Part shown: one piece after another, positions 213 to 40,633 of the stretch
How positions within the stretch are numbered: position 1 is the first letter of the stretch
Layout of the letters: the number at the start of each line of letters is the position of its first letter
NCBI RefSeq assembly: GCF_013122565.1
Contig: NZ_CP053258.1
Source of the DNA: Escherichia coli
GTDB taxonomy: Bacteria; Pseudomonadota; Gammaproteobacteria; Enterobacterales; Enterobacteriaceae
DNA length: 64,000 bases
Direction: 5' to 3' (one strand)
Notes under the pieces: model-generated
What the model was told of the DNA's origin: nothing
Database searches by the model: none
What the model saw: the letters and a program-made list of their open reading frames with translations, nothing else
Made by a program: the position numbers and the translations under genes

Positions 213-3537
<3,325 letters not shown>

Positions 3538-3751
3538 CGCGCACCTCGTGGCTGATTATGGACGGCGTTATTGGCAAAGTGGAACAAGACTCACTCCCGG
3601 GTCAGCAAACTCGAAAAATTGACGCTCCCATTATTTGTGCTTTCGTTTTTTTCTATCCGCCAATAAACCCGTTTTTTTGTTGCTATTTAGCGCCTTTGTC
3701 TTATTGACTTACTGGTAGGCTTTGCTACCAGAAATTATCCGGGAGATGAAA
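3538..3751. promoter_or_regulatory. Divergent fliE / fliFGHI class 2 (FlhD4C2-dependent) promoter region
   Basis: 214-bp AT-rich spacer between divergent fliF (-) and fliE (+) starts; assigned from known flagellar regulon organisation, no motif explicitly matched. Confidence 0.5.
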
Positions 3752-4066
3752 ATGTCAGCGATACAGGGGATTGAAGGGGTTATCAGCCAGTTACAGGCTA
3801 CGGCGATGAGTGCGCGTGCACAGGAGTCCCTGCCACAACCGACCATTAGTTTTGCCGGGCAGCTGCACGCCGCGCTCGATCGCATAAGCGATACACAAAC
3901 AGCCGCCCGCACGCAGGCAGAAAAATTCACTCTCGGTGAACCCGGCGTGGCGTTAAACGATGTGATGACCGATATGCAAAAAGCCTCAGTTTCTATGCAA
4001 ATGGGGATTCAGGTGCGTAATAAGCTGGTGGCGGCGTATCAGGAAGTGATGAGCATGCAGGTATAG
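3752..4066 (+). CDS. fliE: Flagellar hook-basal body protein FliE
   Basis: ORF 3722..4066 trimmed to ATG at 3752 ([22 protein letters not shown]...), 104 aa; RBS gggag upstream. Confidence 0.9.
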
Positions 4067-4456
4067 GTTGTGTAACCTGTTGTTAATTACATCCGATCTC
4101 ACAGCGTGGGGCATGGATGGGGCAAACTCACTCTATTTCTGGTTTAAAATGGATACCTGATCATGAACGTTTTCTGCCATCCACGCTCCGTAACGCGATA
4201 ACCCCCTGAATATCAGAGTGTCTCATTTGACACATCACCACGTCGGATGTTGTTACGACCACAGACGCAACAGTAACCTCTGGATAATTTAATCTTTGTT
4301 GATGTTTTTATTCATATTCCGGGCTAGGGAAATAATCAGGCATAATTGTGTCACTGGAATAGAGGTTTCTTGTGGCGCATGTGGAAGGAGCGTCTACTAT
4401 TGTCTAATAGAGATTTCTTATTACGCAGTTTTGTTCATCACTAATCTCCAGGTTTA

Positions 4457-5125
4457 TCAAACAGGTTGAATTAACTCCGCGCCCTGGTTTTTAACATTAC
4501 CCACCGCGCGCGATACCGGGTGCCAGGTGAACTGGTTTGCTGACACACAACCACTGGTAGCGATTTCTGAGGCTTCTTTACCGCCAATATCTTGCCGCAT
4601 CCATTCCCGCGCAGCTTCTGGCGACAGAACCAGAGGGCGGCGGTCATGAATATCTACCAGACCCTGGTCTGCTGCTGCAGTGACGATCAAAAATCCTTCG
4701 GCTTCGTCACCACGCTCGAACGGTGTGCTACCTATCGCGGCCATAAAAATAGGTTGTCCATCAGCACGATAGATAAAAAAAGGCTGTTTTTTGTCGCCTT
4801 CTTTTTTCCACTCAAACCAGCCATCGGCAAAACAGATTGCCCGACCATGTTGCCAGAGCGGCTTAAACATGCGACTGGTTGCGGCAGTTTCTACGCGGGC
4901 GTTAATCAGCGGCGGTTTATCCCACCATCCGGGAGCATATCCCCAGAAAACCGGATCCAGATGAAGGTGTTCGTCACGTTCACTGAGCAGAAGGACTTTG
5001 GTTCCCGGCGCGACGTTGTATCTGCCAATGGGTTCGGGATCATAGGGAATATCGCGTTCAATATCTTCCGCGAGAAGCGCAAGGTAATCTTCACGCGTTT
5101 GGGATTGGGCAAAGCGTCCACACAT
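4457..5125 (-). CDS. yedK: SOS-response associated peptidase (SRAP/HMCES family, abasic-site processing) YedK
   Basis: ORF 4457..5218 trimmed to the MCGRFAQSQTREDYLALL... start at 5123..5125, 222 aa; N-terminal Cys2 is the hallmark of SRAP proteins. Confidence 0.88.
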   Translation of the reverse strand: MCGRFAQSQTREDYLALLAEDIERDIPYDPEPIGRYNVAPGTKVLLLSERDEHLHLDPVFWGYAPGWWDKPPLINARVETAATSRMFKPLWQHGRAICFADGWFEWKKEGDKKQPFFIYRADGQPIFMAAIGSTPFERGDEAEGFLIVTAAADQGLVDIHDRRPLVLSPEAAREWMRQDIGGKEASEIATSGCVSANQFTWHPVSRAVGNVKNQGAELIQPV

Positions 5126-5233
5126 AGAAACCTCCTGAGAGCACACTGAAAAGAATAGGAGAGGGGGCGGGTAAAATCTATGTGGTACAGAGGCAACGAT
5201 ATTCCCGCTGTGGGCCACAGCGGGAATGAGGGA

Positions 5234-5467
5234 TTACTTCTGAATTAAATAACGAATGGTCGGCCCGTCTTGCTGAATATCCAGCACCGTATAGCCGTGA
5301 TTACGCGCATCCAGTGGAATATTATTGATCGACTGCGGACAGTCGCTCACCACTTCCAGGATTTCCCCTTTTTTTAACTGCGGCATCGCCTCAAGAGTTG
5401 CGACTGCCGGATAAGGGCAGGGTTCACCCACCATATCAAGGCGGTAATCAGGAACGATATTTTTCAT
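5234..5467 (-). CDS. yedF: TusA-like sulfurtransferase-fold protein YedF
   Basis: ORF 5234..5467, 77 aa, contains the CPxP motif (EPCPYPAV) typical of TusA-like proteins; overlaps yedE start by 4 nt. Confidence 0.88.
   Translation of the reverse strand: MKNIVPDYRLDMVGEPCPYPAVATLEAMPQLKKGEILEVVSDCPQSINNIPLDARNHGYTVLDIQQDGPTIRYLIQK

Positions 5468-37741: not shown

Positions 37742-40633
<2,892 letters not shown>

Follow-up and report, generated by a model that had tools for sequence, protein, structure and literature searches.

Does the short gap between fliE and yedK in this strain of Escherichia coli represent an empty attachment site, or the remains of an element that once filled it? The window, that is the whole stretch of 64,000 nucleotides of contig NZ_CP053258.1 that was analysed, shows the E. 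coli arrangement over the wider region (fliG-fliF, fliE, yedK-yedF-yedE, yedD and amyA), and its first 20 kb share 98.3-98.8% identity with many E. coli chromosomes. The fliE stop at 4066 and the yedK stop at 4457 enclose 390 nt (4067-4456) and, exactly as had been noted at the outset, the ORF listing contains no ORF of 60 aa or more within 4067-4456; the longest, of 57 aa (4296-4469), reaches into yedK. The K-12 gene order given in the original prediction also proved to be right: MG1655 carries yedK, yedL, yedN (pseudogene), intG (pseudogene) and then fliE, and the K-12 gene list in PMC10652928 backs this order. The prediction went on to describe the junction as a variable integration hotspot, of which this strain would carry the unoccupied or deleted state, with the integrase remnant of K-12 absent. 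In our reading, the 390-nt interval is very likely the cryptic prophage relic PR-G/intG in the most reduced of its common states, and together with its flanks it is composed of the following features.

3752-4066, plus strand: fliE, 104 aa (TIGR00205 match, E=1.7e-25).
4047-4066, plus strand: putative att core, left half of attL (TGATGAGCATGCAGGTATAG), within the fliE 3' end; phage IdasGreatGrand has these 20 nt, with TCC for AGC, just downstream of its int.
4067-4082, plus strand: P' arm of attL (GTTGTGTAACCTGTTG), putatively phage-derived, from the core to the integrase stop; 15 of its 16 positions equal the IdasGreatGrand attP.
About 4083-4262, minus strand: intG' pseudogene, ~60-70 codons from the C-terminal part of a tyrosine integrase gene, with its stop codon at 4083-4085; equivalent to K-12 intG (b1936), which the MG1655 annotation labels "cryptic prophage PR-G".
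4263-4324, no strand: AT-rich rest of the relic, common to K-12 up to the start of the yedN/espR3 block (alignment and anchor analysis).
4325-4343, no strand: junction 1, 19 nt (TAGGGAAATAATCAGGCAT), seen only in genomes without the yedN/espR3 block, L002, L003, L007, L008 and L009 among them; K-12 has ~1.2 kb here (L001 ~3128-4362).
4344-4396, no strand: spacer, bounded in occupied genomes by the espR3/yedN stop on one side and yedL on the other.
4358-4379, plus strand: left copy of a 22-nt imperfect direct repeat (repeat search, 82% identity).
4397-4399, no strand: junction 2, the site of the 608-nt yedL block of K-12.
4400-4440, no strand: segment common to K-12 upstream of yedL (pairwise and multiple alignment).
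4406-4427, plus strand: right copy of the 22-nt imperfect direct repeat (82% identity); the pair brackets the yedL position.
4441-4456, no strand: B' arm (CTAATCTCCAGGTTTA), putatively the original 16-nt spacer from the fliE stop to the yedK stop before integration.
4457-5125, minus strand: yedK, SRAP / abasic-site processing protein, 222 aa (NF007413 match, E=4e-148).

Read from fliE, the order is att core, P' arm, decayed 3' fragment of int, ~180 nt of leftover intergenic DNA and the 16-nt spacer. We propose that a tyrosine integrase would have recombined a temperate phage into the last ~20 nt of fliE, that the phage attP would have brought its own copy of the final five fliE codons and stop and so left FliE intact, and that the remaining prophage, attR included, would later have been lost by deletion. 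Everything from 4052 to 4440 appears accordingly to be phage-derived or to have come with the phage.

The integrase remnant, which the title of the original prediction implied to be absent here, is present at ~4083-4262 on the minus strand. Window 4067-4324 is 96.5% identical to the intG segment of K-12 over 260 nt, and 4083-4229 matched the last ~150 nt of the integrase gene of IdasGreatGrand (PP925829) with 90.6% identity in blastn (E=6e-49). At the protein level, tblastn aligned 31 of 36 identical residues with an in-frame stop (E=3e-18), and further upstream the loss of 1 nt relative to K-12 shifts the frame. Of the 434 residues, only ~362-431 can be recognised, the N-terminal and catalytic domains being missing, and the 54-aa conceptual translation of this short, frameshifted fragment had no NCBIfam match. 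The fragment combines homology to an integrase C-terminus with the position orthologous to that of K-12 and a disrupted frame, as a relic of intG should, and PGAP calls partial "integrase" pseudogenes at the same spot in several other genomes. The intG pseudogene feature of MG1655 (L104 5503-5781) is annotated with an 81-nt overlap with the fliE 3' end on the opposite strand; by comparison with the intact phage integrase, the integrase stop codon lies ~17 nt outside fliE.

The 3' end of fliE appears to be a real phage attachment site, because its core occurs in the attP of IdasGreatGrand and because complete prophages are found at the site. Directly after its int stop, IdasGreatGrand carries TGATGTCCATGCAGGTGTAG followed by GTTTTGTAACCTGTTG, which correspond to the fliE end and the next 16 nt of the window; the 36 nt shared with window 4047-4082 thus consist of the 20-nt core (the last 20 nt of fliE, stop included) and the 16-nt P' arm. 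Between fliE and the old relic, E. coli UTAK-1 carries a complete 38.6-kb P22-like prophage that has int, xis, a tailspike and a capsid of P22 type; beyond the relic come an intact LRR effector gene and then yedK. The 20-nt core is present at both ends of this prophage (L108 ~607-626 and ~39332-39351). The core on the fliE side has the TCC serine codon of the phage and the distal core the resident AGC; the distal core is preceded by the P arm of the phage and followed by the old P' arm and the old integrase fragment. The swapped TCC and AGC serine codons place the crossover in or just left of TGATG, which implies that the phage supplies the last five codons of fliE. Full-length int was found beside fliE in 6 of 5426 complete E. 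coli genomes and the old relic in 5159 of them (~95%), so that the site is still used, with a few strains, at least 6 of the 5426, carrying a complete prophage with the same integrase type at the same position. Our literature search found no paper on the fliE-yedK junction or on fliE as an attB, the one relevant item being the K-12 gene list named above.

In the window, the last five fliE codons and the stop (4052-4066) are assigned a phage origin, and homology to Salmonella extends precisely as far as the fliE stop. At codon 100 (4052-4054), close to the fliE end, serine is encoded by AGC in the window and in K-12, by TCC in many other E. coli, in IdasGreatGrand and in displaced attR copies, and by TCT in Salmonella. 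Since AGC and TCC are not interconvertible by single synonymous steps, this dimorphism looks like the footprint of fliE ends supplied by phages.

What a truly unoccupied site would be can be read from the E-type genomes, which carry another remnant between fliE and yedK, emrE-ybcL-ybcM, in some cases with an nmpC-like porin or IS200/IS605; we take this gene order to match that of DLP12. Their attR contains a second copy of the fliE end (ATGATGTCCATGCTGGTGTAG or ...CATCCAGG...), with a P-arm-like stretch before it, at 16 nt from the yedK stop, the order being P-arm-like stretch, ATGATGTCCATGC(T)GGTGTAG, 16 nt and the yedK stop. In 456 genomes this attR lies intact and directly against yedK, and of the 3243 matching genomes about one in three has it. 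As the attR core abuts the 16 nt before the yedK stop, the fliE and yedK stops would have lain 16 nt apart before integration, and we infer that a truly unoccupied site would be a 16-nt fliE-yedK gap, equal to window 4441-4456. In the K-12-, O157- and window-type genomes (A, C and D types), homology to the attR query begins exactly at the first base of B', and in A and C types the right junction coincides precisely with the boundary between core and B', which would be odd for a deletion at random. In the window the core is present once, with no second copy, and no match to the P arm was found; the K-12-type genomes likewise gave neither a second core copy nor a P arm. The single core and the missing P arm indicate that attR has been lost from the window; where the relic ended on the right, in the window as in K-12 types, is therefore deduced from other strains. 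In E. coli O91 RM7190 (L006 9039-10830), an IS200/IS605 element (tnpA pseudogene and TnpB) lies between attR/B' and yedK, apparently inserted at or next to the yedK stop, and yedK is annotated there with 672 nt versus 669 nt elsewhere.

The junction varies widely among E. coli genomes. At least seven fliE-yedK arrangements were recorded, including yedL without yedN/espR, yedN/espR without yedL, yedN/espR3 with yedL (K-12, O145), the O157 tandem espR4-yedL'-relic copy-espR3-yedL, and the emrE-type remnant with yedK full or truncated; for the yedN/espR and yedL blocks, all four combinations of presence and absence exist. In an evenly spaced sample of hits, ~47% kept only the first 136 nt of the interval, ~20-25% were K-12-like and ~20% window-like. 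Counted with a 141-nt query (4290-4430) that spans both junctions, at a coverage of at least 80%, the double junction of the window itself occurs in 1015 of the 5426 complete E. coli genomes, with identities reaching 98.6%. The description of the junction as a variable integration hotspot is thus upheld by these arrangements, by the attP with the fliE end and by the complete prophages. Most of the variability is due to differential decay of one old prophage together with rare fresh integrations, not to repeated filling and emptying of the site. As a separate observation, yedK is truncated at its 3' end in about a fifth of the sampled genomes, for example in E. coli DA33137 (L012 19732-20440), and the truncated yedK adjoins a partial helix-turn-helix gene and an IS200/IS605 tnpA.

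Three other accounts of the 390 nt were weighed against the relic. A virgin attB, never occupied at all, would agree with the lack of an intact gene in the interval, but the interval contains the integrase pseudogene and the P' arm of the phage, and the unoccupied spacing is 16 nt, not 390, with 374 nt of relic (4067-4440) standing between the fliE stop and B', so that we regard it as extremely improbable. With a synthetic 316-nt query for the virgin junction, all hits among the best 25 E. coli records were in two pieces, spread over 693 nt as in the window type, and a degenerate 34-nt virgin pattern had no match in metagenome contigs, both searches being of limited power. Of the two states offered originally, the deleted one is therefore the better alternative, and the unoccupied one falls to attL, the P' arm and the integrase pseudogene. 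A collapse or artefact of assembly is harder still to credit, since the double junction recurs in 1015 independently finished genomes. It is also very unlikely that the interval is kept as a functional non-coding element, such as an sRNA, a terminator for fliE and yedK or a regulatory region. The two genes converge, so both transcripts must end in the interval, and many genomes share the 141-nt double junction at identities of up to 98.6%; on the other hand, no Rfam family matched the interval at E<=1, promoter and terminator scans found no such site inside 4067-4456, and about half of E. coli genomes retain just the first 136 nt. Within the first 20 kb, divergence from a collinear empty-type genome is moreover highest at the interval: 4001-4500 has 40 differences, versus ~10 per 500 nt in the flanks. 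The interval contains 42% GC and the window as a whole 50%. The relic appears, then, to behave as neutral DNA.

Compared with K-12 by pairwise BLAST and multiple alignment, the interval consists of three collinear pieces: window 3700-4333 corresponds to K-12 from fliE to 260 nt beyond the fliE stop, 4330-4396 to the 67-nt spacer of K-12 from the yedN stop to yedL, and 4400-5200 to K-12 from upstream of yedL into yedK. What the window lacks relative to K-12 is two blocks, ~1.2 kb with yedN/espR3 and 608 nt with yedL, both as clean indels. The former holds an LRR effector gene or pseudogene (yedN is a DUF5503/LRR pseudogene in K-12 and is intact as espR3/espR4 in O157 and O145), and yedL is an acetyltransferase gene. 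At junction 2, A-type strains such as RM9088 equal K-12 minus the 608-nt yedL block, with no filler, and the window has one A more than this RM9088-type junction. The 19 nt of junction 1 (4325-4343) have no exact match to either side of the K-12 block, and the ends of the yedN block are only weakly similar to each other. No transposase is annotated in the K-12 interval, where the sole bracket of yedL is the 22-nt imperfect direct repeat.

Were these two blocks lost from the window type or gained by K-12? Both blocks, yedN/espR3 and yedL, were probably deleted from a relic of the K-12 kind, with homologous recombination spreading the result, and not inserted later in K-12. Deletion is favoured because yedL is absent by way of two different breakpoints, because the two blocks occur in all four combinations, because neither block appears to have mobile-element features and because effector genes are typical prophage cargo. 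One yedL breakpoint is the 608-nt clean indel of the window type; the other, in L013 (F-type) and UTAK-1, is a fusion of the two 22-nt repeat copies and is plainly a repeat-mediated deletion. T3SS effector genes are commonly carried by prophages, and the effector gene sseI lies at the int-distal end of the Gifsy-2 prophage, which fits an origin of the block inside the original prophage. The converse, that the relic without yedN and yedL is the older state and that K-12 types later gained both blocks through two insertions or recombination with another prophage, seems unlikely to us. In its favour are the 19 nt of junction 1, which are not in the K-12 sequence, the 22-nt direct repeats around yedL, which resemble a target duplication, and the self-contained make-up of each block, with promoter region, gene and 3' flank; against it stand the apparent absence of a transposase, integrase or recognisable mobile-element ends in either block, the one evident repeat-mediated deletion among the two yedL breakpoints, and the filler-free junction 2 of the RM9088-like A types. 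Junction 1 itself does not decide between deletion and insertion for the yedN/espR3 block, as its 19 nt match neither side exactly. An Escherichia outgroup for the fliE-yedK junction was not obtained in one YedK scan of genome contigs: of 80 loci from other Enterobacteriaceae none had fliE nearby except L014, and the Escherichia loci were only this mislabelled E. coli contig and "Escherichia sp. ESNIH1". It is doubtful, finally, that the espR3/yedN and yedL blocks are discrete modules that come and go at fixed breakpoints, with short, imperfect direct repeats on either side; the four block combinations, the recurring breakpoints and the mosaic of occupied- and empty-haplotype alleles in the window are compatible with this reading. 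If it were true, the scar would be a small recombination platform shuffling T3SS effector and acetyltransferase genes among E. coli lineages, and the O157 tandem espR4-yedL'-espR3-yedL array would be one of its products.

Whichever way the blocks went, the history of the window itself appears to involve recombination, since its yedK allele is otherwise seen only with occupied states: the yedK DNA is 100% identical to that allele. The exact YedK protein of the window occurs on only 20 contigs, and in all 8 of the 8 contexts shown (L110-L117) an espR-like gene and/or yedL is adjacent and none is empty; yedK DNA is 99.6-100% identical across these contexts. By comparison, the spacer segment 4325-4399 shares 98.6% identity with empty (A-type) genomes, the integrase fragment is closest to K-12 and O145 (96.5%), and the 57 nt next to yedK (4400-4456), at no more than 91% identity to any genome compared, are the most divergent piece of the interval. 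Measured against the collinear strain TUM2820, divergence peaks in 4001-4500 (8%) and 4501-5000 (4.4%); in the fliD-fliC-fliA stretch (10-14 kb) it amounts to 0-2 differences per 500 nt, and this near-identity suggests a shared flagellin allele on a mosaic background.

The place of yedK relative to the element also had to be settled. YedK-like genes in phages, and the lack of yedK between yedF and fliE in Salmonella, had raised the reading that yedK is prophage cargo at the far end of the relic. This is ruled out by the copy of the fliE end in attR, which lies between the prophage remnant and yedK, and yedK appears to be outside the PR-G element. In Salmonella-like genomes with an identical YedF (so assigned from FliF length and flagellin domains), yedF is followed by a 128-aa ORF and then fliE, with no yedK. 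Homology of the window to these genomes ends precisely with the fliE stop on one side and 17 nt beyond the yedF stop on the other, so that yedK is Escherichia-specific at this position. A search for att-like direct repeats at the ends of the E. coli-specific segment (4040-4120 versus 5110-5245) returned a chance 7-mer only.

Several further observations concern yedK and its relatives. The 128-aa ORF of the Salmonella-like genomes (L096 6499-6885) is unrelated to yedK and the relic, which it replaces, and has no Pfam match. YedK-like SRAP genes with 84-85% amino-acid identity occur in temperate phages; phage PHB10 (L107 15001-15675) has an intact YedK-like gene just after int, and in Gifsy-2 (L105, NC_010393.1 43494-44027) a truncated copy that is not annotated follows downstream of sseI, close to the attR end. 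Several other Enterobacteriaceae have integrase fragments at 300-500 nt upstream of their yedK homologues. Four contigs filed as Lachnospiraceae (MAG), Chryseobacterium, Streptococcus infantis and Streptomyces morookaense (L014, L017, L065 and L084, respectively) carry yedK at 71-96% identity, L014 also with E. coli yedF, fliE and the integrase relic; all four are probably enterobacterial contaminants.

Judged from the sequence comparisons, the scar in the window is very likely an ordinary cryptic-prophage relic, annotated before as PR-G and common in E. coli. Its value lies first in annotation: the fliE-yedK interval is to be read as a cryptic-prophage relic (attL and the intG pseudogene), not as an empty intergenic region. 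In addition, the attachment site of one temperate-phage integrase family is placed in the last ~20 nt of fliE, and one old integration would have given rise to at least seven present-day arrangements, some with the LRR effector genes espR3/espR4. The current understanding of prophage decay, of which the locus provides a clean textbook example, is unchanged by these results.

Among known systems, PR-G of K-12 is the closest, with the same position at the fliE stop, the same attL core, P' arm and integrase fragment, and the same flanks on the yedK side; the window differs in being without the ~1.2-kb yedN/espR3 and 608-nt yedL blocks and in the extra in-frame stop and the frameshift of its integrase fragment. 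The DLP12-like remnant has the same attL and, beside fliE, the initial 136 nt of the integrase relic, but it has kept several prophage genes and an attR copy beside yedK, neither of which is in the window. Elements with the IdasGreatGrand-type module, such as the UTAK-1 prophage, match the window in the attP core and P' arm and, at 90.6% DNA identity, in the integrase 3' end, and the UTAK-1 prophage also has the same orientation as the relic, with the 3' end of int facing fliE; unlike the window, with its ~60-70 decayed codons and no attR, these elements are complete and presumably active, of ~38-48 kb, with an intact 434-aa integrase. A wider parallel is offered by e14 and phage 21, which integrate into the 3' end of icd and supply a replacement gene end. 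By analogy with them, an attP carrying the last codons of its target would leave the gene intact, and AGC versus TCC for serine would mark the end supplied by the phage; the differences are that the target here is fliE and that what the window keeps is the scar alone.
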